DNA of 64,000 nt from Candidatus Omnitrophota bacterium (GTDB taxonomy: Bacteria > Omnitrophota > Gorgyraeia > Zapsychrales > JAHFFX01). Location of the stretch: the NCBI GenBank assembly GCA_023247725.1, contig JAHFFW010000009.1, positions 14,424 through 78,423 of the forward strand, written 5' to 3'. Both the position numbers and the translations under genes were made by a program. A model generated the notes under the pieces. The model searched no databases and was not told the DNA's origin. It saw only the letters and a list, made by a program, of their open reading frames with translations. Of this stretch, positions 2,492 to 63,212 are shown in pieces. The stretch's first letter is position 1, and each line of letters starts with the position of its first letter.

Positions 2492-3787
2492 TTAAGGATG
2501 TGTGCCTTTGCGGAAACACGCATTCTGAACGCAAATAGGATTTATATGAAAAAGGTAACGATTTTTCGCAATCCAGGCATACACCCAAGGCCCCATCAGG
2601 CCTGTTCCCGGAAAATAAAAAAGGATGATGCAAGGGTAAAGCATGGGCAACAGCAGGGACAATCGGCGGAAGGCAAAAAATCCGCCCGAAAGCCGGCCGT
2701 CGGGTTCAATCAAATACAGCTGACTCGCAGCCTTCGCATGATTCAAATCGGGATGAAGCAAGGTCAAATCTTCCATCGTATGGAAGTCCCTCATCTGTAA
2801 ACGCCCCCAAAGATCCATGATTTCGAGATGCCGGACACTCAGACGGCAAAAATTGCATTGGCCATCAAAAACGACAATGGAGCGTTTGGCCTGGAGGTTC
2901 AATTTCCTTCTGACTTCGATCCTTTCAAGAATTTTTTCCGGATTAATGAATAACAACATCTGCGGAGGAAACAGGAAAAAGAAAATGGCCGGCACATCTA
3001 ACGTCAGCAACAACATCAAATGAAAAATAAATCCCCAGATGATCCCGGAACGCCGAGTCGCCGGAAAAAACAGCAAAAATGGCAGGAGGAATTCCGTGGA
3101 GAAAATAAAAATTCCCGTCCAGTAGCAGAGGGCTGGATGAACCGCCAGAAAATCCCGCAAAAGAAAGTTTTTGGTCGATCCTTCGTCAGGATAAAGCATC
3201 AAATAATAAAGCGGGTTATCTTTGATCCAATTGCCTTCCGGATAAATTTTGTATAAGGCCGTAAAGAAAAACGTCGCGGCCAGCTGAATCTGCAGTAACC
3301 GCTGGATAAAATAGGGTCGAGGAGCCTTATAGGCATTGGGATCACGCCTTCTTAAGGCATCGACGGAGAAATAATCTCCCGGATAAGGCGTCAGGCACAC
3401 CAGAAAGAGCGTCACCAAAAGCAGATCCCAGGCCAAAGACGAGCCAATATAAAAATCATTGAGGGCATAAAAATAAAGTAAGGATCCAAATAATATCCAG
3501 CCGCTTGGCTGGGTGTAGCACCCGAGCAAAAAAAGCAACCAGCTGCAAAAAAGCACGGCCAACATCAAGATGATCAACCAGTCCGGACTTTGATCCACGA
3601 GATTGAGAAAATCCACCGGGAAAAAATTGGCATTGTACGTTTTAAAAGCCCCGTGGAGATAATGTTCGCGAAAATGAAAAAAGGATGGACAGACATGCAA
3701 AAAGGTTGCGACCGCCACGGCAATCCGAAATAAGGATAGGCTCAGTGTCGGGCGTTCCACTAAAAATAGCCGGTGCCAAAGATTCAT
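2492..3787 (-). CDS. HTTM-domain (vitamin K-dependent gamma-carboxylase-like) membrane protein fused to a C-terminal DCC-family (DUF393) thiol-disulfide oxidoreductase domain
   Basis: The N-terminal half is polytopic membrane protein typical of HTTM. The C-terminus carries VVFDGQCNFCRLSV, which is the FDGxCxxC DCC motif. The start was moved to Met13 (MNLWHRL), which gives an ATGA overlap with the upstream gene. The track ORF extends to 3823. Confidence 0.6.
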   Translation of the reverse strand: MNLWHRLFLVERPTLSLSLFRIAVAVATFLHVCPSFFHFREHYLHGAFKTYNANFFPVDFLNLVDQSPDWLIILMLAVLFCSWLLFLLGCYTQPSGWILFGSLLYFYALNDFYIGSSLAWDLLLVTLFLVCLTPYPGDYFSVDALRRRDPNAYKAPRPYFIQRLLQIQLAATFFFTALYKIYPEGNWIKDNPLYYLMLYPDEGSTKNFLLRDFLAVHPALCYWTGIFIFSTEFLLPFLLFFPATRRSGIIWGFIFHLMLLLTLDVPAIFFFLFPPQMLLFINPEKILERIEVRRKLNLQAKRSIVVFDGQCNFCRLSVRHLEIMDLWGRLQMRDFHTMEDLTLLHPDLNHAKAASQLYLIEPDGRLSGGFFAFRRLSLLLPMLYPCIILFYFPGTGLMGPWVYAWIAKNRYLFHINPICVQNACFRKGTHP

Positions 3788-4416: not shown

Positions 4417-5894
4417 TGATTTTCATCATGCTCCCCAAAAACTTCGGCGGTAAAAATTTCCATGATCGTATTGGGATCCATCCAGGCCTTCGGGGGCAGA
4501 CCGGCTTTTTGCGCACATAAGACCGATAAAAAAGTGGCCTTGTCCCAGCCGGTTTCGGTTGCCACCTGCGGCAAAAATAATCCCTGATGCATCGAGCCCT
4601 GGCTGACAATCACGCCGTGTTTGCCCAATTCAATTTCATCAATCGAATGAATCCGATGCGGAACCGATAAAACCGAGACCTCCACATCGATATCGCTCAG
4701 TTCTTCCTGCTTTAACGGATCAAACCGGGGATCGCGGGTCGCTGCCGAAACCGCCATATCGCGGACCGTCAGATACAAAGGTTCCCTCCCTATCACTTGA
4801 CCGATGCAGCCGCGCAATTCTCCCTTTTTTCTAATCGTCACAAAGGCACCCTGGGTTTTCAATAAAGCATCCTCTTTGGTCTGGAACTCGGGAATTTTCT
4901 GGGAACGGACAAAGGATTCAATTGTCTCGCGGGCGATTTTCAATAACTCCTTCTTTTGTTCAGGGGTCAAGGCGCCGGCCGCCTTTTGATTATTTTCTGC
5001 GGCCGGCGTCGTGGACGGATGGAATATAACAGAACAATATCCGACGACGCGAAATTTATCTCCGGATGTATCGCCAGAATTGCCATATCGCAAAACTTCT
5101 GCTGTCCAATGTCGCCGTTCGGCTAGCGCAAGGGCGGTCGCGACACCCATAAATCCACACATCTCCATTGTCCCGGAGATGTTTCCATTCCAGAATTCTT
5201 CCACGTCTCCCTTTTCAATGGCCTTGAGTGTGCCGGCATCCATGGCGCGAGCCACCGAATCCGGATGGTAATGCGACATATCGGTGGAAATAACCATCAA
5301 GACATCCTTGCGCTCGCCAATGAGTTTATCGAGGGCCAGCGCCAACTCCTCGATCACCTCAGGATTCGGTTGTCCCATCAGAATCGGAACCAATTTAAAA
5401 TCTTTAAAGGTCTGCTGCAGAAAGGGCAATTCCACCTCGAGGGCATGCTCGCGTTCATAAACCTCCGGCTGAAAATGAAAGTTGGGGCTCTCCGCCAGAA
5501 GCCTTTGGGTGAATTCATCGTCGACTGGAACAATCCCCAGCGGGGTTTTGAATCCCCCCTCTTTCCAGACGGAGATCCCGGAAAACGGGAAAAAGTGGCT
5601 AGGCGCAATGACGATGATGGTGGAATACTGGCCAGCGCTCACCGCGCGAAAACTGTAGGCCGCGACCGGCCCGGAATACGGATAACCCGCATGCGGGGCA
5701 ATGACCATCGGTAAAGGCTGTTCCAAAGGCTTTTGACCGGATTGGTCAAAAAATGTTTGGATTTGCTTCACCAGTTCCTTCGGATTATCGTTGTAAAATT
5801 GGCCACTCACGTTTGGTTCTTTGATGAGCGGTTCAGCGTGCGAATAAGAACATGTCCCCATCATCATGGCCCCAACTAAGCAAAGGATTTTCAT
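4413..5894 (-). CDS. Memo-like (AmmeMemoRadiSam system protein B) - AMMECR1 (protein A) fusion with an N-terminal signal peptide
   Basis: Memo motifs VIAPHAGYPYSG and ISTDMSHY are in the N-terminal half. AMMECR1 motifs GAFVTIRKKGELRGCIGQ, RDPRFDP and GKHGVIVSQG..GLFLPQV are in the C-terminal half. The N-terminus MKILCLVGAMMMGTCSYSHA looks like a cleavable signal peptide. Confidence 0.7.
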   Translation of the reverse strand: MKILCLVGAMMMGTCSYSHAEPLIKEPNVSGQFYNDNPKELVKQIQTFFDQSGQKPLEQPLPMVIAPHAGYPYSGPVAAYSFRAVSAGQYSTIIVIAPSHFFPFSGISVWKEGGFKTPLGIVPVDDEFTQRLLAESPNFHFQPEVYEREHALEVELPFLQQTFKDFKLVPILMGQPNPEVIEELALALDKLIGERKDVLMVISTDMSHYHPDSVARAMDAGTLKAIEKGDVEEFWNGNISGTMEMCGFMGVATALALAERRHWTAEVLRYGNSGDTSGDKFRVVGYCSVIFHPSTTPAAENNQKAAGALTPEQKKELLKIARETIESFVRSQKIPEFQTKEDALLKTQGAFVTIRKKGELRGCIGQVIGREPLYLTVRDMAVSAATRDPRFDPLKQEELSDIDVEVSVLSVPHRIHSIDEIELGKHGVIVSQGSMHQGLFLPQVATETGWDKATFLSVLCAQKAGLPPKAWMDPNTIMEIFTAEVFGEHDENQ

Positions 5895-6334
5895 AAGGGT
5901 TGATTGGTTTTTGAAAAATAACGGTCAAGACTAAAAAAGGCCGTCCGCTCAATGCGAATCCGAAGATAAGCGGTGATTGTCCAGAGAATGATGTCCATGA
6001 GGAATGTCACCGGTAGAGGAAAAGACCAGCGGGAACCAAAACATCCGCACTCTTCTAAAGGCAGGCGGCGAATCAATGCCTGTCCGACGATCAAAAGAAA
6101 ACCCAAAATCATGATCAAGACCCCGCGCAGGGTCCATTCCAGCCACAAACCCAGGATGAGAAACACCCCTAAAATCAGTTCGATCCAAGGCATGACCCGG
6201 GCGGCCGACTCCTCCGCAAATGGCGGCAGGATCTGATAATTTTGAATCACATACAAAAAATTCTGATAAGGGAAAAGCAGTTTTTCCCCGCCGGAAGCGA
6301 CAAATAACAAACCCAGCAGGATTCTTAGGATCAC
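5891..6334 (-). CDS. MauE/DoxX-like 4-TM membrane protein with a CGCFG motif
   Basis: 147-aa hydrophobic ORF. It has the conserved EECGCFG motif seen in the MauE (methylamine utilisation) and DoxX-type thiol-redox membrane protein families. ATGA overlap with the downstream gene. Confidence 0.45.
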   Translation of the reverse strand: MILRILLGLLFVASGGEKLLFPYQNFLYVIQNYQILPPFAEESAARVMPWIELILGVFLILGLWLEWTLRGVLIMILGFLLIVGQALIRRLPLEECGCFGSRWSFPLPVTFLMDIILWTITAYLRIRIERTAFFSLDRYFSKTNQPL

Positions 6335-6996
6335 TAAGGCATTGATGGCAATTCTCCCAGACGCGTTTTCAATTCCGATTCCAATGATTTGATCCCGACA
6401 AACATTTGATCGTTAATAAAATAAGTCGGGGTGGACTGAATCCCTAAGGCCACGCCATTCTCTTTTTCGCGAAGAATCACCGATTTGACCTCATCATTGG
6501 TCAGGCATACCTCTAATTTCAGTTTATCCAGCCCGACGGCGGTGCCGATTTCCTGAAAGATGGGATCGGCATTGATGAGCCCCTTCCAATCATTCTGCCG
6601 GGCAATCAGAAGATCATGAAAAGGCCAGAATTTTCCCTGACGGGCGGCGCATTCTGCGTAACGGGCACAAAGCTGGGCGTGTTGATGCCCGTCCAATGGG
6701 AAATATTTCATTTGCAGATAAAGTTTTTTGGGGTAGGCCGCGTAATATTGATTGAGCATGGCGACCCCGCGGGCGCAGGCAGGGCATTGAAAATCGATGT
6801 ACTCGACGATTTTGACCGGGGCATTGGGATCGCCTTTGGTGCGCATCCGACTGACATCTTTGGGTCCTTGGCTTAAATATCCTTTTAAAAGATTGATGAT
6901 GACGATGAGGAGAATGCATAAAATAACGATCAAAACAGTGGTATTTTGTTTCTTTTGAATCGCATTCTTGGCTGGTGGGTTGGAAGCCTTCGGCAT
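6334..6996 (-). CDS. DsbA-like thioredoxin-fold thiol:disulfide oxidoreductase, membrane-anchored
   Basis: N-terminal TM anchor (TTVLIVILCILLIVIINLL). CPAC active site in YIDFQCPACARG. DsbA-like length of 220 aa. First gene of the coupled operon. Confidence 0.65.
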   Translation of the reverse strand: MPKASNPPAKNAIQKKQNTTVLIVILCILLIVIINLLKGYLSQGPKDVSRMRTKGDPNAPVKIVEYIDFQCPACARGVAMLNQYYAAYPKKLYLQMKYFPLDGHQHAQLCARYAECAARQGKFWPFHDLLIARQNDWKGLINADPIFQEIGTAVGLDKLKLEVCLTNDEVKSVILREKENGVALGIQSTPTYFINDQMFVGIKSLESELKTRLGELPSMP

Positions 6997-7110: not shown

Positions 7111-7138
7111 AATGAAACATGCTGCGAATCAAAGCAGA

Positions 7139-7176
7139 GCGCCCCGCCCCACAGAAATTTTGCGGGGCGGGGCGCT
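7139..7176 (-). terminator. GC-rich hairpin, probable terminator downstream of the small Met-rich ORF
   Basis: Perfect inverted repeat agcgccccgcccc / ggggcggggcgct with a 12-nt loop. It lies about 35 nt after the stop at 7211. The flanking U-tract is only modest. Confidence 0.4.
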
Positions 7177-7552: not shown

Positions 7553-9208
7553 CTAAAGTTGTGGGCCCGCGGCCACCAGGGCTTGGCCGTGCGGCGTGTC
7601 GGTGAAGACTTTGAAGTTCTCAATGAACATCCCGGCCAGCTTGCGCAGCATTTGGTCGTACGCGTTTTTATCGGTCCAGCTGTCTCTGGGATTTAAGGCT
7701 GTCTGGACTCCCGGAAGGCTTTTGGGAATCCGCAAATTGAAAATCGGGAGATTGCCATATCCATCCTTTTCCAAAGTATTATTGAATATCGCATCAATAA
7801 CGGTCCGATTGTCCTGGATTGCAATCCTTTTGCCAACCCCGTAAGACCCCCCCACCCAACCGGTATTGATCAAATAGACTTTCGTGCGGTGCTCATCCAT
7901 TTTTCGGCCAAGAATTTCGGCATAACGGGTCGGATGCAGAGTCAAAAATGCCTTTCCAAAGCAGGCGGAGAATGTGGCCTTGGGCTCGGTGACGCCGAGC
8001 TCAGTCCCCGCCACCTTTGCCGTGTAACCACTCAAAAAGTGGTACATCGCTTGCTCGCGGGTTAATTCCGCAATGGGCGGAAGAACTCCAAAGGCGTCAC
8101 AGGTTAAAAAGATGACATCCTGAGGATGGCCGCCTTTAGAAACTGGCAAGACAATATTGTCAATGTGGTCAAGAGGGTAAGAAACCCGCGTATTTTCCGT
8201 TTTCTGGCCAGAGGCAAAGTCAACTTTTCCGGATTCATCGACCACGACACTTTCCAGGAGAGAATTAACCTTGATGGCATTGTAAATCTGCGGTTCCTTC
8301 TCCCGGGATAGGTTAATGCATTTAGCGTAACAACCTCCTTCAAAATTGAAAATACCCTCATGATCCCAGCCATGCTCATCATCGCCAATCAGACGGCGTT
8401 TGGGATCGGTTGATAGGGAGGTCTTGCCCGTGCCAGAAAGGCCAAAAAAAAGCGCCGTGTCTCCTTTTTGACCCATATTGGCCGAACAGTGAAATGATCC
8501 AATCCCTTTGAGGGGCAGAAAATAGTTCATGATGGAGAAAATCCCTTTTTTGATTTCGCCTCCATACCAAGTTCCGCCAATGCAGGTCATTCGCTGGGCG
8601 AGGTGAAATGCCACAAAAACTTCCGAGCGCAGCCCATGCTGGGCATAATCAGGACAGATGGCCTTGCAGGCATTGAGGATGGTCCAGTCAGGTTTGAAAT
8701 TTTTTAATTCGCTTTCGCTGGGACGGATAAACATATTTTTAAAGAAGTGCGCCATCCATGCAACCTCGGTCACCAGACGAATCGACAACCGCGTTGCCGG
8801 ATTGGCACCGCAGAAGCCATCCATCACGTAAAGTTTTTTGCCGCTCAATTGATAGACGCAGATTTCTTGCAAATGATTCCACGTGGTTTCACTGATCGGT
8901 TGGTTGTCGGAACCTTCTTTGCGGCCGCTTGCCCACCAGACCGTATCATGACTGGAACGCTCATCGACGATATATTTATCTTTGGGCGAGCGTCCGGTGA
9001 ATTTGCCGGTATCGACCGCCACGGCCCCGAACTCCGTCACTACCCCCCGCTCATAACCGGTGAGGGCGGGATCGGTTTCATGCAGGAAGAGTTCTTCATA
9101 GGAGAGGTTATAAAATATTTCGCTCCAGCCCGTGATACCAATCCTTTTGAGCTCCCCCCCAGGGGAAATGGTCTCCACGACACGATTGCCAAAGATATTG
9201 AGTTTCAT
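7553..9208 (-). CDS. pckA: Phosphoenolpyruvate carboxykinase (ATP)
   Basis: 551 aa. Has the kinase-1a motif [13 protein letters not shown] and conserved PckA blocks (DDEHGW, GGCYAK). Confidence 0.9.
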
Positions 9209-9243: not shown

Positions 9244-10938
9244 TCAGGAATAAATACTAACCCGATTACGGCCTTCTTTCTTGGATTGGTACAGCGCCCG
9301 ATCGGCCTTGAGGATGAGCTCATGCCGGTCCATCTGCTCGCTATAGGCGGCGATGCCGATGCTGAGCGTGATCGGTCTTTTTAACTGCAATTGTTCCACC
9401 GCATGAAGGAATTTTTTGGCGACGACTTCCGCCTTATGGATCCGAGTTTCCACCAGAATGACCGCAAATTCGTCTCCTCCATAACGACAGGCCACATCGA
9501 TTTCACGCAGATTTTTGCTGATGGTCCGGCTGACTTCTCTTAATAACTGATCCCCTTCGAGATGACCGTAGGTGTCGTTATAAGTTTTGAAATTGTCAAT
9601 ATCGATCATCATCAAGCACAACGGCGCCGGGTAACGCTTCAAGCGTTTGATTTCCTGGTCGAGGGTCTTGGCGAAATGCCGGTGGTTATACAAACCCGTC
9701 AATGGATCGGTAATGGACAGATATTTGAGCTCGCGGTAGAGATTGGCATTTTCAATGGCCACCGCCGCCTGGCGAATGATGGCGGACAAAACCCGCAGGT
9801 CCGTGGAGGTGAAGATTTCATTCTTGTTGCGTCCTTTATCCGCGACGTTCACCACCCCAATCACCTTTTTTTCCAGCTTGATGGGCACGCTCAAAAAGGA
9901 TTTACCATGATAGGCTGGGCGGTTCTTACGCGGTAAGGGGCTTTCCTTATCAATATCCGTCACCAGCATCGGTTCACCATACATGGCCACCAGACCCGAG
10001 ATCTGCTCCCCCAATTTGATCCGTGTATCATGGATAATATCATCACTCAAGCCCTTCGCCCCTTTGATGAGAAGCTCATTGCGTTCCTTGTCGATGAGCA
10101 TTAAGGAGCAGCGGTTAGCATCAATGATTTCCACGGACTTGTTCACTACAAAATCCACGAGCTCCTCCAGTTTCAGGATGGAACTGATCTCCTCATGCAG
10201 GCTCAGGATATGCTCGAGCTTGAGCTTCTCAATGCGCATCTGCTCCTGATGACGCTTTTTCTCCGTAATATCGCGCACGATCCCTTCCATCCCCAGAAAA
10301 TTTCCCTCTGGTCCAAGGATCGCTCGAACGGTTTCGGCCAAAGTGATGATCTTTTCATCCTTGCGCACGAATTTGATTTCATAATCGATGAGCGAACCTT
10401 TTTCTTTCAAGTCAGACACGAGATTGGCATGCTCTTGCGGATTCATCTGCAATTCCTGATGCAGATTGGTGCCGATCAATTCCTTGGGCTCTTCATAGCC
10501 AAGCATCCGGGCAAAGGCGCCGTTGGCATAGGTGATGATCCCATGGGCATCCGTCATATAAATCCCAGCGGGCATCGATTCGACGAATTGAAAGAAACGC
10601 TGTTCCGGCCCGGGGCCGGAGGTGGGTGAAGGAGGCGTCATAGAAGTCATGGATTTTGTTTTTGCGGTTAAACCGGCCGAGGGTAACGTGTCATGTTCAT
10701 GAAATGGTAATAGGCGGTTGCGCGCGCTGGAATCACCCTCCGGCGTCAGGGACACCACCAATTGATCCTTATTCGTATCAACCTGCACATATTTTTCGCG
10801 CACCAGCCATCCGATGCACACATGGATATCATCGATCGGCTCTTGCAAAATATCGGCCAGATCCTTGGCCGTTAAAGATTTTCCGTCCTGCTCCAGGACC
10901 GCCAGAATCTGTCCGGAGATAATCCCAATCTTGATCAT
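9244..10938 (-). CDS. Diguanylate cyclase (PAS-GAF-GGDEF)
   Basis: PAS-like region (PAGIYMTDAHGIITYANGAFARMLGY), a GAF-like middle region, and a C-terminal GGDEF with RYGGDEFAVIL. Confidence 0.8.
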   Translation of the reverse strand: MIKIGIISGQILAVLEQDGKSLTAKDLADILQEPIDDIHVCIGWLVREKYVQVDTNKDQLVVSLTPEGDSSARNRLLPFHEHDTLPSAGLTAKTKSMTSMTPPSPTSGPGPEQRFFQFVESMPAGIYMTDAHGIITYANGAFARMLGYEEPKELIGTNLHQELQMNPQEHANLVSDLKEKGSLIDYEIKFVRKDEKIITLAETVRAILGPEGNFLGMEGIVRDITEKKRHQEQMRIEKLKLEHILSLHEEISSILKLEELVDFVVNKSVEIIDANRCSLMLIDKERNELLIKGAKGLSDDIIHDTRIKLGEQISGLVAMYGEPMLVTDIDKESPLPRKNRPAYHGKSFLSVPIKLEKKVIGVVNVADKGRNKNEIFTSTDLRVLSAIIRQAAVAIENANLYRELKYLSITDPLTGLYNHRHFAKTLDQEIKRLKRYPAPLCLMMIDIDNFKTYNDTYGHLEGDQLLREVSRTISKNLREIDVACRYGGDEFAVILVETRIHKAEVVAKKFLHAVEQLQLKRPITLSIGIAAYSEQMDRHELILKADRALYQSKKEGRNRVSIYS

Positions 10939-22018: not shown

Positions 22019-22346
22019 CTTGCCGATATCCTTTCTTTTAAAAAAAATGAAAATCGTCTATTCTTCTTCATGTTCACCGCGTCCATGAAAATTTTTTCCA
22101 AAGGCCTCTGCCAAAAATTTGGCCAGGAGCAAAAAAATGATCGCGTTGATCAACATCCGGAACGCCTTGATTTTTCTTATTGAAGATTGAAATCTGCTGA
22201 TCGAAATTGGACAAAATTTTATGACGAAGGACTTTTATAACTATTCATTGGAATTATAAAGGCTGGCCATTGAGTGTCAACGATATTTTGGGAAATTTGT
22301 GATTGTGGAAGTGCAGCCAGAGGATTTTCAAGAAAAGACAAACGCG

Positions 22347-22395
22347 CGGGGGCCATCCCGACGGAAAAACGTCGGGATGGCCCCCGCGCAACAAT
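22347..22395 (-). terminator. Rho-independent terminator for the OmpA/LysM gene
   Basis: Perfect 20-bp inverted repeat gcgcgggggccatcccgacg-gaaaaa-cgtcgggatggcccccgcgc. On the minus strand it is followed by GUUUGUCUUUUCUU. Confidence 0.55.
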
Positions 22396-27550: not shown

Positions 27551-27639
27551 GGGATTGTCCTTTTCGCAGATTTTTTAAGGTCGCTATGTGGGATTAGGAT
27601 ATCATTAAATGCCCTATCGCGGAAGAAACTTTGAAAGAG

Positions 27640-27680
27640 AAAAAGCGAGGGCCGCCCCGCCAAAGGCGAGGCGGCCCGTC
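27640..27680 (-). terminator. Rho-independent terminator after yceI-like gene
   Basis: Stem gggccgcc / ggcggccc. On the minus strand it is followed by CGCUUUUUCUCU. Confidence 0.4.
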
Positions 27681-27710
27681 CCTTTTCGCCGTCGCTTAAT
27701 ATTTCGAAAA

Positions 27711-35040: not shown

Positions 35041-35095
35041 AAAAAAGGCGGCTTCCGGTCCCACCGTTGACGGAGCCGGAAGCCGCCTTAACTTC
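35041..35095 (-). terminator. Strong bidirectional rho-independent terminator
   Basis: aaaaaa-GGCGGCTTCCGG...CCGGAAGCCGCC-ttaactt. On the minus strand the hairpin is followed by UUUUUUAUUUUU. Confidence 0.6.
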
Positions 35096-39683: not shown

Positions 39684-39816
39684 TGCAGATCGTTTTAAGG
39701 TGAGTTTTTGATGGGCACCCGATCAAAATGACAACCATCGTGGGCCGCTGAGAACGCAAGGCCCATTTTAATCCAACTGCGGCGAGGAATCAATGGAATT
39801 TTTAAAGGGCTTTTTA

Positions 39817-39930
39817 AAATCACCAAATTTCAAGAAGCAATGACCAAAAAATAACCAATTCCTCAATAACCAAATTTGATAATTGGTGATTTATGAAAAT
39901 TTTTTGATGATTGTCTCTTGGTTATTGGTC
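39817..39930. promoter_or_regulatory. Array of CCAATAACCAA / TTGGTTATTGG-type motifs in an AT-rich intergenic region
   Basis: Hits: aatcaccaaattt, ataaccaatt, aataaccaaattt, ataattggtgatt, ttggttattgg. This is a candidate operator/promoter for the treT operon. Confidence 0.3.
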
Positions 39931-39937
39931 TATTAAC

Positions 39938-45902: not shown

Positions 45903-46911
45903 GGGTAAACCGAATCTCGATCACCAGACTAAACCAGGCGTGTTCCCTCCATTGCGATTGAAATTTTTTTAACTTGATTGCGTCTTTCTGTGTTGTGACA
46001 AAGATGCCGTCGTGTTTTTGTCCATCTTCGCTGAGCGTCCCAATGTCCTCGGCAGAATACCGGTGATGATCCGGAAAAATTCGAAAATTTTCCAGCTGAA
46101 TATTGAATTGCTTCAAGATCCGCTCAAATGATTTGGGATCGCCGATCCCACAAAAGGCCGTGATCCTTTTTCCCTTCAGGAATGACAAAGAAAGCCGTTT
46201 TTCCGTCTTTAAGTCAATCAGCTCGACCGGCGCATGGATGGATTCCGCAATGGGAGCTTGCGGATTTAAGCGAGACAATTTTTCCCGAAGGATCGGAAGA
46301 TGGCTTTGCCCCCCATCGGTCTTGGTCAAAACAAAAATGTCCGCTCGTTCTAACGCCTCAATCCTTTCCCGCAAGATTCCGCGAGGAATCAAATGACCAT
46401 TGCCAAAGGGATTCGTCGAATCAACGACGACAATGTCCAGATCGCGAAAAAGCCGCCAGTGCTGAAATCCATCGTCGAGTAAAAGCACATCCGGCGAATA
46501 ATCCCGGATCGCCTGCGCCGCGCTGCGAATCCGGTTGCGGCCAACCATAACCGGGATGCTGCCTAAGGCCGCTTCCAATTGGCCGGCTTCGTCACTTTTG
46601 GATTCCGGGCGGCCATGTCCCATATATCCCCGGGTCAGAATGACGGGCCGAGATTTTTCTTGCGCCAAATACCGGGCGATCCATTCGACCAAGGGTGTCT
46701 TGCCCGTACCGCCCCAGGTGATGTTGCCAACGCTGATGACAGGACAGGAGAAACGATGCGTCTTCAAAATATGCCAGTCGTAACCCCGTCTGGCCAAGGA
46801 TACTCCCAGCCCATAGGCTCCCGACAGAATGCAGGCCATCGGTTCTAAAAAAATCCGGCCGTTGGGACCTTGATCGGTCGCCAGCGCATACAAATCTTCT
46901 TTCAACGTCAT
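45853..46911 (-). CDS. lpxK: Tetraacyldisaccharide 4'-kinase
   Basis: P-loop ISVGNITWGGTGKTP. LpxK length. Confidence 0.8.
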   Translation of the reverse strand: MTLKEDLYALATDQGPNGRIFLEPMACILSGAYGLGVSLARRGYDWHILKTHRFSCPVISVGNITWGGTGKTPLVEWIARYLAQEKSRPVILTRGYMGHGRPESKSDEAGQLEAALGSIPVMVGRNRIRSAAQAIRDYSPDVLLLDDGFQHWRLFRDLDIVVVDSTNPFGNGHLIPRGILRERIEALERADIFVLTKTDGGQSHLPILREKLSRLNPQAPIAESIHAPVELIDLKTEKRLSLSFLKGKRITAFCGIGDPKSFERILKQFNIQLENFRIFPDHHRYSAEDIGTLSEDGQKHDGIFVTTQKDAIKLKKFQSQWREHAWFSLVIEIRFTHGKDDLLKRITHLLVR

Positions 46912-48167
46912 GCCAAAAACCTCGATAAGACATCGACCGTCTTTTGGGTTGCTCCTTGAGAATTTTTGACCACGGCCCGGGCTCGGTCTCCTAAGGCCGC
47001 CGCCGCCGCAGGGTCGGAAAGCAACTGGCGCAAAGACACAAGCAATTCATTCTCATCCTTCACCTGAATGACGGCCTGGTTCCTTAAAAATGTTTCAAGG
47101 ATCTCGCGGAAATTTTCCATCATTGGTCCGACGAGGATTGGCTTGCCAAAAAAGGCTGGTTCGATGATATTATGCCCGCCGCCAACCCTAAAACTTTTGC
47201 CGACAAAAACCACCTGCGCCAGACTATACAACCAGTGCAGATTCCCAATTGTATCGACGACAAGGACACGGTTGGCTGCCAAAGATCCATTCTTGGTTTC
47301 CGAAAATTTTACGGGCTGCAGATTTTCTTTGGACACAAGCTCGCAGACCTGTGCCGACCTCTGCGGATGGCGCGGGGCCAAAACCAATTGCAACGAAGGA
47401 AACTGGGGATGAAGTGCTTTAAACATTTCTAAAAGAATTTCCTCCTCGCCGGGATGAGTGCTGCCGGCGACCAACAATGAACTTCCGTGATTAAACCTTA
47501 AATCCTCAGGGAACTTTGCAGCTTGCAGAAGAACATCAAATTTCAAATTTCCGACGACGCAAACCTTTTCCGGATCGGCACCCAGCTTGATGAACCGCTC
47601 TTTGTCCGTTTCGCTCTGAGCGCAGATTTGGTTGATTGGCCGCACGACCGGACGCAAAAAAAATCGAACCCAGTGATACCTTCGGTAGGCCTTGGGAGAT
47701 ATTCGTCCATTAATGAGGACAACCGGAATCTTTCGGCGAAAAAGCGCCAAAAGCAAATTTGGCCAAATCTCGGTTTCTGCCAGGACATAAAGCACCGGCT
47801 GAATCTGGCGGATATATTTACGAACAACCCAGCTCAAATCAAAAGGCGCATAAATGATGTGGCATTGATGGCCAAATTTTTCCGTAGCGAGCGTATACCC
47901 CATCGATGTGACTGTAGAGATAATATATTGATAGCTGGAATAACTCTTTTTTAGTTCCTCCAGGAGTGTTCCCACCGCCATCACTTCGCCGACGCTGACC
48001 GCATGCAGCCAAATATTTTTTGAGCTCCGCAATGCTTCGGTCAGCTCTGGGGAAAAATTCCCCCAGCGCTGCCAAAGCCCCGCATGCCATTTGCCCTTGA
48101 GCAAGAGATAAGGCAGGTAGATTAAGGTATAAAGAAAGAAAATGAAATCGAAAAGAAATCGCATCAT
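46908..48167 (-). CDS. waaA: 3-deoxy-D-manno-octulosonic acid (Kdo) transferase
   Basis: WaaA/KdtA N-terminal domain (IWLHAVSVGE) and a GT-B C-terminal domain. ATGA overlap with lpxK. Confidence 0.8.
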   Translation of the reverse strand: MMRFLFDFIFFLYTLIYLPYLLLKGKWHAGLWQRWGNFSPELTEALRSSKNIWLHAVSVGEVMAVGTLLEELKKSYSSYQYIISTVTSMGYTLATEKFGHQCHIIYAPFDLSWVVRKYIRQIQPVLYVLAETEIWPNLLLALFRRKIPVVLINGRISPKAYRRYHWVRFFLRPVVRPINQICAQSETDKERFIKLGADPEKVCVVGNLKFDVLLQAAKFPEDLRFNHGSSLLVAGSTHPGEEEILLEMFKALHPQFPSLQLVLAPRHPQRSAQVCELVSKENLQPVKFSETKNGSLAANRVLVVDTIGNLHWLYSLAQVVFVGKSFRVGGGHNIIEPAFFGKPILVGPMMENFREILETFLRNQAVIQVKDENELLVSLRQLLSDPAAAAALGDRARAVVKNSQGATQKTVDVLSRFLA

Positions 48168-48171
48168 TGTT

Positions 48172-48243
48172 CCGGTGCCCCAGCGACCCGGGATCCCGGT
48201 GACCCAGTCGATTCTCTGGGACGCTGGATCTCTGGGGCACCGG
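48172..48243. repeat. Palindromic element with 12-bp perfect arms (ccggtgccccag / ctggggcaccgg) and internal GTGACC-type motifs
   Basis: It lies between the xerC/D stop and the waaA start. It contains cccgggatcccggtgaccc. Confidence 0.35.
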
Positions 48244-48266
48244 GCTCCCCATGAATTTACTTGGTA

Positions 48267-49127
48267 CTATGCCCGCGGATGCGCCTTGTCGTAAACGCTT
48301 TTCAGCCGCTCGGTAGTTACGTGAGTATAAATCTGAGTCGTGGATAAATTCACATGGCCTAAAAGTTCCTGGACACAACGCAGATCCGCCCCCCGATTGA
48401 GCAGATGCGTGGCAAAGGAATGGCGCAGGACGTGCGGCGAAACATGATTGGCCAGGCTGGCGGCTTGCAGGTATTTCTGAGTGATATTGAGGATACTGCG
48501 GGTGGTGAGCCTCCCTCCCTGCTTATTTAAAAAAAGAGCGGTCGTGGACGACTGGCGCTGTTCGAGATATTCTTGAATGGCTTGCAGGGCCTGGTTGCCG
48601 ATGGGAAGCAACCGTTCTTTTTTTCCCTTGCCTCTCACTTTAACGATATTGCCAATCGCATCGAGGTCTTCCACATTCAAACCCACAAGCTCGCTCACCC
48701 GCATACCCGTCGAATACAACGTTTCAAAGATGGCCCGGTCCCTTTTTCCGGAGAGCTTGTCGGCAGGCGGACTTTCGATGAGTTGAACCATCTCGCCTTC
48801 GCTCAAAAATTTAGGAAGCTTCTTGTCCAACTTCGGGGTTTGCAACAATAACGCTGGATTTTCTTTCATATGATTTTCCCGCATCAAAAATTTGAAAAAA
48901 CTGCGCAGGCTGGACAATTTCCGGGCGAGGCTCCGGGGCTTTAATTCCTTTGTCCGCAAGTGCGCCAGGTATTTTCTTAATGCCAGGTAATCAATATGGT
49001 CAAGGGCTGGATCTTGATGAAAGGCAAAAAACTCCTCAAGATCAAGCCGATAATTGAGCAAGGTATGCTCCGAATAATTTTTTTCGATTTCGAGATAGGA
49101 AATGAATTTATCGACGTAGCGGTTCAT
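48267..49127 (-). CDS. Tyrosine recombinase XerC/XerD family
   Basis: Catalytic R..H.R.Y region: HVLRHSFATHLL...LLGHVNLSTTQIYTHV. N-terminal core-binding domain. Confidence 0.8.
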   Translation of the reverse strand: MNRYVDKFISYLEIEKNYSEHTLLNYRLDLEEFFAFHQDPALDHIDYLALRKYLAHLRTKELKPRSLARKLSSLRSFFKFLMRENHMKENPALLLQTPKLDKKLPKFLSEGEMVQLIESPPADKLSGKRDRAIFETLYSTGMRVSELVGLNVEDLDAIGNIVKVRGKGKKERLLPIGNQALQAIQEYLEQRQSSTTALFLNKQGGRLTTRSILNITQKYLQAASLANHVSPHVLRHSFATHLLNRGADLRCVQELLGHVNLSTTQIYTHVTTERLKSVYDKAHPRA

Positions 49128-49130
49128 TGT

Positions 49131-49193
49131 CCGTGACTCGTGACCGGTGGCCTGTGACTCGACGGGTCACGAGTCACGGATCACGGGTCACAA
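49131..49193. repeat. GTGAC/GTCAC heptad-repeat palindromic element (15-bp perfect arms) abutting the xerC/D start codon
   Basis: ccgtgactcgtgacc-ggtggcctgtgactcgac-gggtcacgagtcacgg-atcacgggtcacaa. There are 4 x GTGACNN heptads, then 4 x GTCACNN. It ends 3 nt before the xer ATG. Confidence 0.5.
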
Positions 49194-49195
49194 TT

Positions 49196-51172
49196 TCAAT
49201 TTTCTTCCAAGCCCCCACCCGGCTCTGGCAGTTTGTTTTCGATATGAGTGCACTGCGGATAATTGCTGCAGCCAAAAAAGATCGAGCCTCGCTTGGATCG
49301 GCGTTCCGCCAATTCTCCCGTGCAGCCAGGTTCCGGACACTTGACCCCCGTCAAGAAGGCTTGTGCGAACTTGCATTCGGGGAAACCCGAACAACTCATA
49401 AATTTGCCTTTGCGGCCCCATTTGATCGTCATCGGCCGGCCACACTGCGGGCATTGACGGTCAATGAATTGCTGGGTTTTGACGATGTTGGCCATGGCAT
49501 AATCCAATTCTTCTTTAAACGGCTGGTAAAATTCGCCCAGAAGTTTGTTATAGGCAAGTTTCCCCTCTTCAATGAGATCAAGACTTTCTTCCATCGTCGC
49601 GGTAAACCCAATATCCATGATTTTAGGGAAATACTCGACGAGCAAGTCACAGATGAGCATTCCCAACTCGGTCGCCATGAAATAACCGCGATCCCGCAAA
49701 ACATAATTGCGGGCTGCGAGCGTCTGGATGATGGCCGCATAAGTGCTCGGACGGCCAATCCCATCTTCCTCGAGAGCCTTGACCAGGCTCGCTTCCGAAT
49801 AACGAGGCGGCGGTTTGGTGAAGTGTTGACTGGGCCTCAGTTCGAGAAGTTTCAGCCCATCGCCTTTTTGAAAATGGGTTAAATCGAGTTTCTCTTCTTC
49901 CTGGCGGGATTCGGCGTCCAAAATTAAAAAGCCATCAAACAAAAGCGTAGAACCGGAGGCGCCAAACAGGAATCGGCCGGCAGAGATTTCAATTTTTTTG
50001 TATTGATAAACCGCCGGTACCATTTGGCAACAGATAAATCGTTTCCAGATGAGTTCATACAATTTGTACTGATCCGCATCTAAATATGCCTTAAGATCGG
50101 CGGGTGTTCGGCCCACATCCGATGGGCGAATCGCTTCGTGCGCTTCCTGAGCGGATTTTTTTGATTTAAAACGATTCGGGGTTTCGGGCAAATATTGTTG
50201 ACCATAATTATGGGGGATCCATTGCCGGGCGCCTTCAATGGCTTCTTTAGAAATATTCACCGAATCCGTACGCATGTAAGTGATCAAACCCACCGGCTCT
50301 CCATTGCCGATTTCGATCCCTTCGTAAAGTTGCTGGGCGATCATCATGGTTTTCTGGGCATTAAAACCCAGTTTGTTGAAAGCTTCCTGCTGCAGGGTGC
50401 TGGTAATAAAGGGAGGCAGAGGATTGCGTTTGACTTCCCTTTGGGTGATCTGCGAAACCACAAACTCTTGCTGTTTGATTTCGCTCGTCAGCTTTTGCGC
50501 TTCTTGGCCCGTGGTCAATTCAAATTTTTGTCCGTCGACTTTCTCGAGCAAGGCCACCAGCAAATCCTCAAATCCCGCTTTCTTTAATCTGGCTTCGATT
50601 TGCCAATACTCCTGAGGAACAAAACTTTTGATGGCCCTTTCTCGCTCCACAATCAAACGCAATGCAACCGATTGAACGCGTCCAGCGCTTAAGCGGGATC
50701 CCACCTTCTTCCACAATAAAGGGCTAATCTGGTAACCGACAATCCGGTCCAATACTCGTCGGGCAATCTGGGCGTCGATCTTTTTTTGATCGAAATCCCT
50801 GGGCTTGGCAAAGGCCCGCAGGACCGCATCGCGAGTGATCTCATGGAAGGTCACTCGATAAAATTTTTTTCCATTGCCAAGCTGATTCACAATATTCCAG
50901 CCGATCGCCTCGCCTTCGCGGTCGGGATCAGTGGCGATATAAATTTCCTTTTTATTTTTGGCTTCCTTCTTAAGCGAGGAAAGGACTTTTTGCTTGGCCC
51001 GCACGACGACAAATTTTGGCTCAAAATTGCGTTCCAGATCCACCCCCAAGGTCGATTTTGGCAAATCAATCAAATGCCCCATGGAGGGAAGGACTTTGTA
51101 TTTATGACCCAAGATCTTATTAATCGTCTTGACCTTGGCCGGGGATTCAACAATAACCAGCGATTGCGCCAT
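49196..51172 (-). CDS. topA: DNA topoisomerase I
   Basis: Toprim N-terminus (LVIVESPAKVKTI), active-site Tyr region, C-terminal Zn-ribbon repeats (CPQCGRPM.., CSGFPECK.., CPEPGC..). Confidence 0.85.
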   Translation of the reverse strand: MAQSLVIVESPAKVKTINKILGHKYKVLPSMGHLIDLPKSTLGVDLERNFEPKFVVVRAKQKVLSSLKKEAKNKKEIYIATDPDREGEAIGWNIVNQLGNGKKFYRVTFHEITRDAVLRAFAKPRDFDQKKIDAQIARRVLDRIVGYQISPLLWKKVGSRLSAGRVQSVALRLIVERERAIKSFVPQEYWQIEARLKKAGFEDLLVALLEKVDGQKFELTTGQEAQKLTSEIKQQEFVVSQITQREVKRNPLPPFITSTLQQEAFNKLGFNAQKTMMIAQQLYEGIEIGNGEPVGLITYMRTDSVNISKEAIEGARQWIPHNYGQQYLPETPNRFKSKKSAQEAHEAIRPSDVGRTPADLKAYLDADQYKLYELIWKRFICCQMVPAVYQYKKIEISAGRFLFGASGSTLLFDGFLILDAESRQEEEKLDLTHFQKGDGLKLLELRPSQHFTKPPPRYSEASLVKALEEDGIGRPSTYAAIIQTLAARNYVLRDRGYFMATELGMLICDLLVEYFPKIMDIGFTATMEESLDLIEEGKLAYNKLLGEFYQPFKEELDYAMANIVKTQQFIDRQCPQCGRPMTIKWGRKGKFMSCSGFPECKFAQAFLTGVKCPEPGCTGELAERRSKRGSIFFGCSNYPQCTHIENKLPEPGGGLEEN

Positions 51173-56457: not shown

Positions 56458-56463
56458 TCTTCT

Positions 56464-56655
56464 TTAAAATCCTTTCTCTTTCAATCTCTGCCATATCTTT
56501 TTATTTTTGGGTGGCATCAGGCGATCAAGAAAATGATTCATGTTCTCCAGCCATTGCAATTTTTGCCGTAAAGGCAAAGCGATATAGCTTTTTAAATCTT
56601 CTGTACAATATCCTTCATTTTTATTTTTCTTTCTGATCACGACCCAACTCCTCAA
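56464..56655 (-). CDS. Small hypothetical ORF (63 aa) upstream of leuA
   Basis: Track ORF with no recognisable features. It overlaps the end of the nucleotidyltransferase gene by 35 nt. Confidence 0.2.
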   Translation of the reverse strand: MRSWVVIRKKNKNEGYCTEDLKSYIALPLRQKLQWLENMNHFLDRLMPPKNKKIWQRLKEKGF

Positions 56656-57124
56656 TTTGCTTTAATCCGATGATGTCCAGTTGATCTCTCGCTCGGCCAG
56701 CGCTTTTTTTCATTTTAATCAAATTGGCAATGTCCATGACTGGCACCACTAGGCCTCGGTCTCGAAAAATCTTTCTTCGCCTGAAAGCCTTCGAGAAATT
56801 AATCGGATGATCAATGACCACATCCAAATATTTGCTTTGAAAACCTGGATCATAAAACGTAAACGCCTTCATATTTTTGTCTTTGATCCAAACTCTCCTT
56901 AACGCGGCAATCGCAAAATCCTCGATCTTCACCGGAATTCTTGGCACTAATCTTAATCTCTTAACGGCCTTGACAAAATTTCTGATGTTTCCATCTTGCA
57001 AAAGGAGGATGATATCCAAATCCGCGGTTAAACGATAGAAACCATGCAAGTTAACAGCCAACCCTCCTACGACTAAATATTTTACCTTGCGGCGATTGAG
57101 TTCCTGTAGAATTTCCTCAAACAT
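56621..57124 (-). CDS. Pol-beta-superfamily nucleotidyltransferase (Lnu/ANT(2'')-like fold), function unknown
   Basis: KYLVVGGLAVNLHGFYRLTADLDIIL matches the hGG.A...G..R.T.DlDi minimal-NTase motif. The start was moved to MFEEILQ (57124), 4 nt after the methyltransferase stop. Confidence 0.5.
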   Translation of the reverse strand: MFEEILQELNRRKVKYLVVGGLAVNLHGFYRLTADLDIILLLQDGNIRNFVKAVKRLRLVPRIPVKIEDFAIAALRRVWIKDKNMKAFTFYDPGFQSKYLDVVIDHPINFSKAFRRRKIFRDRGLVVPVMDIANLIKMKKSAGRARDQLDIIGLKQIEELGRDQKEK

Positions 57125-63175: not shown

Positions 63176-63212
63176 CACGGGTCACAGGTACCAGTGACCC
63201 GTCACCGGTCAC
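63176..63212. repeat. GTGAC/GTCAC heptad-repeat palindrome downstream of ahcY
   Basis: cacgggtcacaggtaccagtgacccgtcaccggtcac. It shares the cacgggtcac core with the xer-proximal element. On the minus strand it is followed by AAUUUUUUCG. Confidence 0.4.

Follow-up and report, generated by a model that had tools for sequence, protein, structure and literature searches.

We analysed a 64,000-nucleotide stretch of contig JAHFFW010000009.1 from a Candidatus Omnitrophota bacterium (the window), in which three palindromes built of short repeated units lie next to genes. Element 1 falls between topA and the tyrosine recombinase gene xerC, element 2 between xerC and kdtA (waaA), and element 3 downstream of ahcY (Table 1). 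All larger gene-like open reading frames (ORFs) of the window are on the minus strand, and the order around the first two elements is dprA, topA, xerC, kdtA, lpxK and a lipid-A acyltransferase gene. This order is kept in relatives with TopA proteins 73-78% identical to that of the window. The TopA of the window is 100% identical to a protein recorded only in NCBI/ENA assemblies, and the nearest named relatives are Omnitrophota metagenome-assembled genomes. We take the ATG at 49127 to be the real xerC start because the N-terminus MNRY(V/L)DKF is conserved in relatives. We argue below that the elements are probably copies of a dispersed class of heptad hairpins that would arise at the DNA level, and that the two flanking xerC are predicted to bury the starts of xerC and kdtA.

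Read on the coding strand, element 1 runs from the topA TGA through aatt into the heptads GTGACCC GTGATCC GTGACTC GTGACCC, then GTCGA, and continues through GTCACAG GCCACCG GTCACGA GTCACGG to aca and the xerC ATG. It has perfect 15-bp arms (49131-49145 / 49165-49179) and longer arms of 19 nt that are 95% complementary and 13 nt apart (49130-49148 / 49162-49180), while an alternative register, slipped by one heptad, pairs 49140-49161 with 49170-49191 at 82%. Tandem Repeats Finder reports a period of 7 with 4.3 copies at 49162-49191. The two-unit string GTGACNNGTGAC occurs three times in the window against 0.02 expected, and a three-heptad pattern with up to three mismatches gives ten matches against 0.38 expected, all of them within elements 1 and 3. 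The RNA fold of element 1 is predicted at -38.6 kcal/mol (z = -5.7).

Element 2 is made of CCCAG/CTGGG-type units of 7-8 nt. Its 31-nt arms are 77% complementary and include perfect 12-bp outer arms (48172-48183 / 48232-48243), the palindrome ends 4 nt ahead of the kdtA ATG, and the fold is predicted at -48.5 kcal/mol (z = -3.0). Element 3 begins 3 nt past the ahcY stop, has 9-bp arms (63177-63185 / 63194-63202) and a predicted fold of -36.2 kcal/mol (z = -4.6), and is followed 9 nt downstream on the coding strand by a run of six T residues (T6). An earlier note on this DNA had described about four GTGACNN and four GTCAC heptads with perfect 15-bp arms upstream of the xer gene, a stem ending 3 nt before an ATG that lacks a Shine-Dalgarno sequence, a palindrome with 12-bp arms past the xer stop, and a third related element; each of these is present, with 2-3 nt between the stem and the xerC ATG, no Shine-Dalgarno sequence of the GGAGG type there, and the third element composed of GTSAC heptads.

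The three copies have only a 5-mer core in common. Elements 1 and 2 also share a CCGGTGMC motif and a 3' tail, GGA(A)CAATGA, but neither is significant against shuffled sequences and we therefore regard this likeness as a weak resemblance only. The elements are not assembly artefacts, since element 1 is identical in a separate ENA contig (L001) and element 3 in a Logan assembly from another sequencing run (L148). We further note that GTGAC holds a TGA and that, with a period of 7, three units are enough to put a stop codon in every reading frame, the inverted arm doing likewise on the opposite strand. Any ORF entering a (GTGACNN)n array thus ends within 21 nt.

Table 1. Genes and repeat elements around xerC in the window, and hairpins directly upstream of xerC in unrelated metagenomic loci.
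Feature	Coordinates	Strand	Remarks
topA (DNA topoisomerase I)	49196..51172	(-)	TGA stop 4 nt ahead of the first heptad of element 1
Element 1	49128..49195	(-)	Entire topA-xerC spacer, 68 bp; 4+4 GTGAC/GTCAC heptad hairpin
xerC (tyrosine recombinase, 286 aa)	48267..49127	(-)	Phage_integrase and SAM-like N-terminal domains
xerC-kdtA spacer	48168..48266	(-)	Holds element 2; palindrome at 48172-48243
kdtA/waaA (Kdo transferase)	46908..48167	(-)	Start region predicted to be sequestered by the 3' arm of element 2
Element 3	63176..63212	(-)	GTSAC (GTGAC/GTCAC) heptad element downstream of ahcY
L158 hairpin	3378-3444		Heptad/octad hairpin directly upstream of xerC
L164 hairpin	1736-1816		Heptad/octad hairpin directly upstream of xerC
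L177 hairpin	299-375		Heptad/octad hairpin directly upstream of xerC
L195 hairpin	9855-9946		Heptad/octad hairpin directly upstream of xerC
L196 hairpin	8563-8624		Heptad/octad hairpin directly upstream of xerC
L221 hairpin	4698-4812		Heptad/octad hairpin directly upstream of xerC

No promoter-like or terminator-like site is predicted in the scanned stretch 47900-49600, which takes in elements 1 and 2. Because the genes are co-directional and this stretch holds no such site, topA, xerC and kdtA are likely co-transcribed. In the co-transcript, elements 1 and 2 would fold into very stable hairpins with 3' arms ending 2-4 nt before the start codons. Neither start has a Shine-Dalgarno sequence, and GGAGG-type sequences are present at other genes of the window. 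When the mean unpaired probability over positions -18 to +4 was calculated in 111-nt windows around 49 gene starts, xerC had the lowest value of all (0.14 against a mean of 0.47, standard deviation 0.11) and kdtA the third-lowest. Forcing positions -15 to +5 open is predicted to cost 17.4 kcal/mol at xerC and 15.4 kcal/mol at kdtA. With stable hairpins abutting the start codons and no Shine-Dalgarno sequence, independent ribosome loading on xerC and kdtA is predicted to be strongly depressed. The hairpins might additionally act as 3'-end barriers, stabilisers or processing sites for the upstream message. Translational coupling through a ribosome at the topA stop was also modelled and set aside, the main stem being predicted to stay closed at -35 kcal/mol. 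The window and six further loci contain no Rfam family at gathering thresholds, and E-value mode gives only sub-threshold matches to generic microRNA-precursor hairpins.

G+C-rich stems directly past stop codons are also what ordinary intrinsic transcription terminators would look like, an identity that we consider improbable for these elements. An intrinsic terminator is a G+C-rich stem-loop with a T run immediately after it. Element 3 is borderline in this respect, its T6 lying 9 nt from the stem; in its counterpart in a close relative (L002) the last unit is immediately followed by T6. At elements 1 and 2 a T run is lacking, the stem being followed straight away by the next start codon (ACAATG and AACAATG), and the terminator scan is blank at both. 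Canonical stem-plus-T-tract terminators do exist elsewhere in the window (35045-35089, 27639-27687, 22344-22389 and 7138-7176).

In the closest available relatives, L002 and L003 (TopA identity 78%), hairpins of heptads or octads are found at the ahcY, xerC and leuA junctions, amounting to four copies in 42 kb of their sequence beside the three copies in the 64-kb window. The proposal that the three elements are related intergenic palindromes of a dispersed family is supported. The orthologous junctions are partly common to the close relatives, with differing unit types. After ahcY, GTSAC-type units are found in both the window and L002. After xerC both have CCCAG-type units, with a period of 8 in L002, where the xerC-kdtA spacer consists of CCCAGCGT x4 followed by inverted CTGGGnnn x4. 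Ahead of leuA, L003 has a (GTCACAA)-type 4+4 hairpin as against a GCGCCAA/GTGCCCA-type 4+4 hairpin in L002. The hairpins are additions to minimal junctions, because hairpin-free spacers measure only 8-13 nt (topA-xerC 8 nt in L146; xerC-kdtA 11-13 nt in L146 and L003).

At the topA-xerC junction itself, L003 and L146 have no hairpin and L002 has a different insert. Between topA and xerC of L002 (11982-12332) lies a 116-aa ORF with a signal-peptide-like N-terminus, its stop overlapping the xerC start (ATGA). Detectors for periodic runs and for inverted pairs found no match in 86 kb from four loci of more distantly related Omnitrophota, although to the eye the topA-xerC spacer of L144 resembles a degenerate heptad hairpin. 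Both L144 and L145 have strong, unrelated hairpins in this spacer.

The same architecture extends well beyond Omnitrophota. A scan of one genome per bacterial or archaeal species for GTGACNNGTGAC-N3-33-GTCACNNGTCAC (two GTGACNN, a gap of 3-33 nt and two NNGTCAC) returned at least 120 matches, against our own estimate of about 35 chance matches in the full 596 Gb; the class statistics that follow cover loci among the matches listed. By record title, these come from Acidobacteriota (Pyrinomonadaceae dominant), Bacteroidetes/Bacteroidales, Dialister, Planctomycetota and Verrucomicrobiae, and also from Nitrospirae, Chloroflexota, Gemmatimonadaceae, Beta- and Gammaproteobacteria and Desulfuromonadales. 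A typical copy consists of (GTGACNN)x4, 15-30 nt and (NNGTCAC)x4. The number of units per arm peaks at four (70 and 69 of 130 arms) and falls steeply above four, and the 4+4 form is the commonest, with 48 elements. The free positions co-vary between the arms, 0.68 being complementary as compared with 0.45 +/- 0.03 for shuffled partners.

With the caveat that placement rests on crude gene calls, only five of about 100 elements lie inside ORFs, and nearly all are thus intergenic. Between co-directional genes, the median distance is 5 nt from the upstream stop to the beginning of the element and 27 nt from its end to the start codon that follows. The stop codon is the TGA within a GTGAC unit in 20 of 58 cases. 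The elements of the window are DNA palindromes in intercistronic spacers, of a class that typically begins a few nucleotides past the upstream stop.

This class is defined by geometry rather than by sequence. A sequence-blind detector of inverted periodic runs found 190 pairs of period 7 in the listed loci, as against 6, 3 and 2 for periods 6, 8 and 9, and the same 4+4 layout occurs with the unrelated units GGATTGC, GTCCCAA, AGAGGTC, GAGGGAT, GTGAATC and CAGTAGT. GTSAC is thus one frequent unit of the heptad-hairpin class. Up to nine heptad hairpins of several unrelated unit types lie in a single 8-kb locus; the 8-kb locus L100, one of those matched in the GTGAC scan, and other Pyrinomonadaceae loci, among them L079, L114 and L110, are extremely dense in them, with several unit types each. 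Among GTGAC-type copies, those of Pyrinomonadaceae have a loop-proximal GTTAAA..CAAG motif in common. In one metagenomic locus (L196), the same heptad hairpin is present twice, at 6254-6342 and 8563-8624, with 2.3 kb between; homology of the copies continues through the loop and into a 3' tail that takes in the ATGGA start of the downstream gene. Since the pair shares loop and tail, whole elements can be copied, and copying as a complete stop-to-start module is suggested.

Fold stability shows no preference for either strand across the class: among the matches listed, the sense strand folds better in 28 cases and the antisense strand in 29, with 102 and 109 G-U pairs respectively. Selection on a sense-strand RNA was therefore rejected as a general account of the class, and selection on one RNA strand is unlikely as its origin.

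Unrelated bacteria hint at a particular link with xerC. A metagenome scan with XerC recovered distant homologues only and, because the best match was 57% identical, says nothing about gain or loss at the strain level; its 80 loci (774 kb) were reused as a control set. Here the unbiased detector found eight periodic hairpins, and five of these, with differing units, stop no more than 55 nt ahead of the point where the xerC match begins (P = 0.0014 by binomial and 0.0026 by Poisson-binomial calculation, given the number of gene junctions). For most of the xerC-upstream hairpins in the unrelated loci, about 15 nt or less separate the 3' arm from the start. Two tandem xer-like genes flank the hairpin in L195 and L221. 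The converse link was not seen, no XerC-like gene being found in 1 Mb of hairpin-selected loci. These observations suggest that, in unrelated bacteria, hairpins favour the position 5' of xerC. The bracketing of xerC that had been described for the window at first seemed coincidental, relatives having such hairpins at other genes, but its 5' side may reflect this preference.

One interpretation of these data is that the hairpins are selected post-transcriptional regulators of xerC and kdtA, in which the stem sequesters the start and keeps the recombinase scarce, or ties its synthesis to upstream translation or to a processing step, for instance by RNase III; the heptad structure would then be merely the easiest evolutionary route to a long stem. 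We regard this as possible though doubtful. It would account for an xerC start that is the least accessible in the window and costly to open, for a 3' arm that adjoins an ATG lacking a Shine-Dalgarno sequence, for the unrelated strong hairpins of L144 and L145, and for the five of eight periodic hairpins near the xerC start, an enrichment that rests on small numbers. It fits poorly with the junctions of L003 and L146, which have no hairpin, and of L002, with its different insert. The class as a whole has no sense-strand bias and adjoins all kinds of genes, with no XerC-like gene among the hairpin-selected loci, and simple coupling is unsupported because, in the prediction, a ribosome halted at the end of topA leaves the main stem paired.

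The reading that we favour, with a probability of about 0.7, is that the elements of the window are copies of lineage-dispersed heptad hairpins, of the same kind as the heptamer pairs of Xanthomonas and the heptamers of cyanobacteria, with an origin at the DNA level and a predicted occlusion of the xerC and kdtA starts. Each would consist of about four 7-nt units (a 5-nt core plus two free positions), a spacer of 5-30 nt and about four inverted units. Such arms could arise if replication slippage in 7-nt steps went together with the use of one arm as template for the other; now and then an entire element would be copied to a new site. That the arms arise and stay symmetrical at the DNA level, rather than by selection on one RNA strand, is suggested by the equal stability of sense and antisense folds noted above. 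Hairpins would accumulate upstream of xerC inasmuch as a recombinase needed in few copies tolerates repression or benefits from it, and the simplest reading of the enrichment is indeed such tolerance or a mild benefit.

Several points weigh against this account. Slippage and arm-copying would leave both the four-unit limit and the recurrence of GTSAC across phyla unexplained. The enrichment upstream of xerC hints at a link more specific than tolerance alone, and the unrelated strong hairpins at the topA-xerC junction of L144 and L145 could mean that a hairpin at this site is selected for itself. In addition, the operon structure is deduced from co-directional genes and from the empty site scan of 47900-49600, and the size of the local family rests on the 64-kb window plus 42 kb from close relatives.

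Placement of the window's hairpins alongside known heptamers is supported by close structural agreement. In Xanthomonas, GGGAATC/GGGANTN heptamers form arrays of mostly four units with a conserved core and variable positions, and 70-75 convergent inverted pairs per genome are able to form stem-loops (Rehm et al., 2015; PMC4692102). They are 89-93% intergenic, with a mean distance of 28 nt to the ORF on their 5' side and of 160 nt to the downstream one, and vary in length and sequence at the same junction between related species (PMC4692102). The heptamer repeats of Nostoc read GGGGA(C/T)T (PMC4692102). Like these pairs, element 1 has 7-nt units with a core and variable positions in a convergent, stem-loop-forming 4+4 arrangement, and elements 1 and 3, like the Xanthomonas repeats, are intergenic, beginning 4 and 3 nt past the upstream stop. 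Unlike them, the window units are GTSAC-NN or CCCAG-type and not G-rich, so that no G-quadruplex is possible, the phylum is Omnitrophota, and the hairpins fill the spacer right up to the following start codon, as against the mean of 160 nt in Xanthomonas. New here are the GTSAC unit and the phylum Omnitrophota within this class of inverted heptamer-repeat pairs.

Cyanobacterial short tandemly repeated repetitive (STRR) heptamers, reportedly described by Mazel et al. in 1990, are said to include CCCCAGT, TTGGTCA and CAACAGT. They resemble the present elements as intergenic tandem 7-nt units with several types per genome and lineage-specific abundance, and the CCCAG-type units of element 2 are similar to STRR1. 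They differ in being described mainly as direct tandem arrays, which serve in strain fingerprinting; as far as it is checkable, the STRR description includes neither a fixed inverted 4+4 geometry nor a placement from stop to start. Three tandem heptanucleotides of the cyanobacterium Calothrix are mentioned, without their sequences, where they are cited in PMC4692102. TAACTGA heptamers, which occur in marine Beggiatoaceae, some Cyanobacteria and Bacteroidetes, immediately precede start codons; a role in translation has been proposed for them, and they are almost all direct, with one inverted case in 170 sets (MacGregor, 2015; PMC4679880). The heptad hairpins share with this family an intergenic position, a patchy distribution across phyla and a stop codon in the unit (TGA in GTGAC), but TAACTGA repeats form no long hairpins. 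That heptameric repeats are in general over-represented between bacterial genes was reported by Mrazek et al. (2007), a study cited by both PMC4692102 and PMC4679880. A literature search for GTGAC-type repeat strings found no paper on them, only unrelated primer and sequence matches.

The elements also recall repetitive extragenic palindromic (REP) sequences and REPINs in being short, dispersed intergenic palindromes with lineage-specific abundance whose inverted pairs form long hairpins. REPs, however, carry an unpaired GTAG or CGTC tag on stems of 5-13 bp with a family-conserved sequence, and GTAG REPs are associated with a gene for a REP-associated tyrosine transposase (RAYT, of the IS200/IS605-type Y1 group); their proposed roles include messenger RNA stabilisation and termination (Di Nocera et al., 2013; PMC3733652). 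No such tag occurs at the flanks of element 1 (TGAAATT / ACAATG) or element 2 (GGGGAGC / AACAATG), the arms reach 15-31 nt, only a 5-mer core is common to the copies, and no transposase or RAYT/IS200-like gene is found among the approximately 48 window ORFs scanned against Pfam. REP and REPIN were thus set aside as identities in the strict sense. The earlier note had read the elements as a genome-specific REP-like or iteron-like family; of this reading the dispersed palindrome family stands, whereas the heptad hairpin is present in many phyla and so is not genome-specific, and neither REPs nor, as shown below, iterons describe it.

A looser version, in which the hairpins are REP/REPIN-like or miniature inverted-repeat transposable element-like non-autonomous mobile elements and an enzyme encoded elsewhere recognises, copies and inserts the folded hairpin at gene junctions, seems unlikely to us but has several observations on its side. 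The copies are dispersed, palindromic and intergenic, patchy and abundant in some lineages while undetected in the four distant Omnitrophota loci, and they have the look of insertions into minimal spacers. The L196 pair with its common loop and 3' tail and the loop-proximal motif of the Pyrinomonadaceae copies are consistent with mobility. Viral contigs also contain the pattern, but with only 18 matches this count says little on phage spread. Set against these are the absence of an unpaired GTAG or CGTC tag, arms that far exceed REP stems, the lack of a visible target-site duplication and of a transposase or RAYT gene in the window, copies in the window that are alike in a 5-mer core only, and orthologous junctions that differ in unit type. 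Single 8-kb loci also hold many unrelated units, and a sequence-specific enzyme would not mobilise hairpins with unrelated unit sequences within one locus. A sequence-specific REP transposase is thus unlikely as the origin.

The eight GTSAC sites, direct and inverted, beside a DNA recombinase gene could in principle form a double-stranded array of protein-binding sites, iteron-like or bound at the pentamers by XerC/D or another factor. We consider this very improbable. A 7-bp period puts successive sites on different faces of the helix, the cores differ (CCCAG versus GTSAC) at the downstream partner and at orthologous sites, and the class exists with many unrelated units. Iterons are direct repeats of about 17-22 bp, helix-phased and placed beside a replication initiator gene or origin. 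Here the units recur every 7 bp and are flanked by topA, xerC and kdtA, the unit differs between copies and orthologous sites, and no replication (rep) gene or origin context is found among the Pfam-scanned window ORFs, so that iterons were rejected. A dif-like Xer site spans 28 bp, with two 11-bp arms around a 6-bp centre; no window sequence matches a degenerate dif consensus with up to three mismatches, a consensus that may not be that of Omnitrophota. The suggestion that a protein-binding array occludes xer translation is thus half retained: the initiation region is predicted to be occluded, but by an RNA hairpin, with nothing to indicate a protein array.

A more speculative proposal draws on the xerC link. 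Heptad hairpins may be one cross-phylum class of free sequence but fixed geometry, with arms of about four 7-nt units and some 20 nt between the arms, and with a preferred seed site 5' of xerC. Xer-type tyrosine recombinases would make, move or use them by acting on the DNA of the folded hairpin. Precedents for recombinases acting on folded DNA are integron integrases on attC sites and XerCD on folded CTX-phage DNA. We give this proposal little credence; if it were true, the hairpin-bracketed xerC of the window would be the counterpart of a REP-bracketed RAYT gene.

Whichever process makes them, the hairpins extend what is known of heptamer repeats, whose excess in bacterial intergenic DNA, reported in 2007, remains unexplained. 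The inverted 4+4 form occurs well beyond Xanthomonas and cyanobacteria, it combines a fixed geometry with free sequence and an exact placement from stop codon to start codon, and it can, by prediction, bury the start site of an essential housekeeping recombinase. Should the link to xerC be real, it would offer a concrete handle on the origin of the repeats or on a regulatory target, and would bear on gene calling and expression prediction in uncultured phyla.

Other repeats and inserts were encountered at neighbouring sites. In the ahcY-ilvC spacer of L002 (2538-2580) and L003 (2560-2596), upstream of ilvC, lies a conserved non-heptad hairpin, aaggctacaggtggc.gacg.ctgcttgt.gcctt, which may be a leader or attenuator; the gene order of the window differs at this site. 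The 659 nt upstream of leuA in the window (56458-57116) contain small ORFs only, to which the matching ENA contig assigns DUF6036, nucleotidyltransferase and HepT-like genes, and this toxin-antitoxin-like insert is absent from L002 and L003. Past the stop of an ABC-2 permease gene (39684-39937, minus strand) there is an A+T-rich cluster of overlapping inverted repeats with ACCAAT/ATTGGT-like units, among them 31-nt arms at 39822-39852 / 39899-39929, which may be an A+T-rich counterpart of the heptad hairpins.

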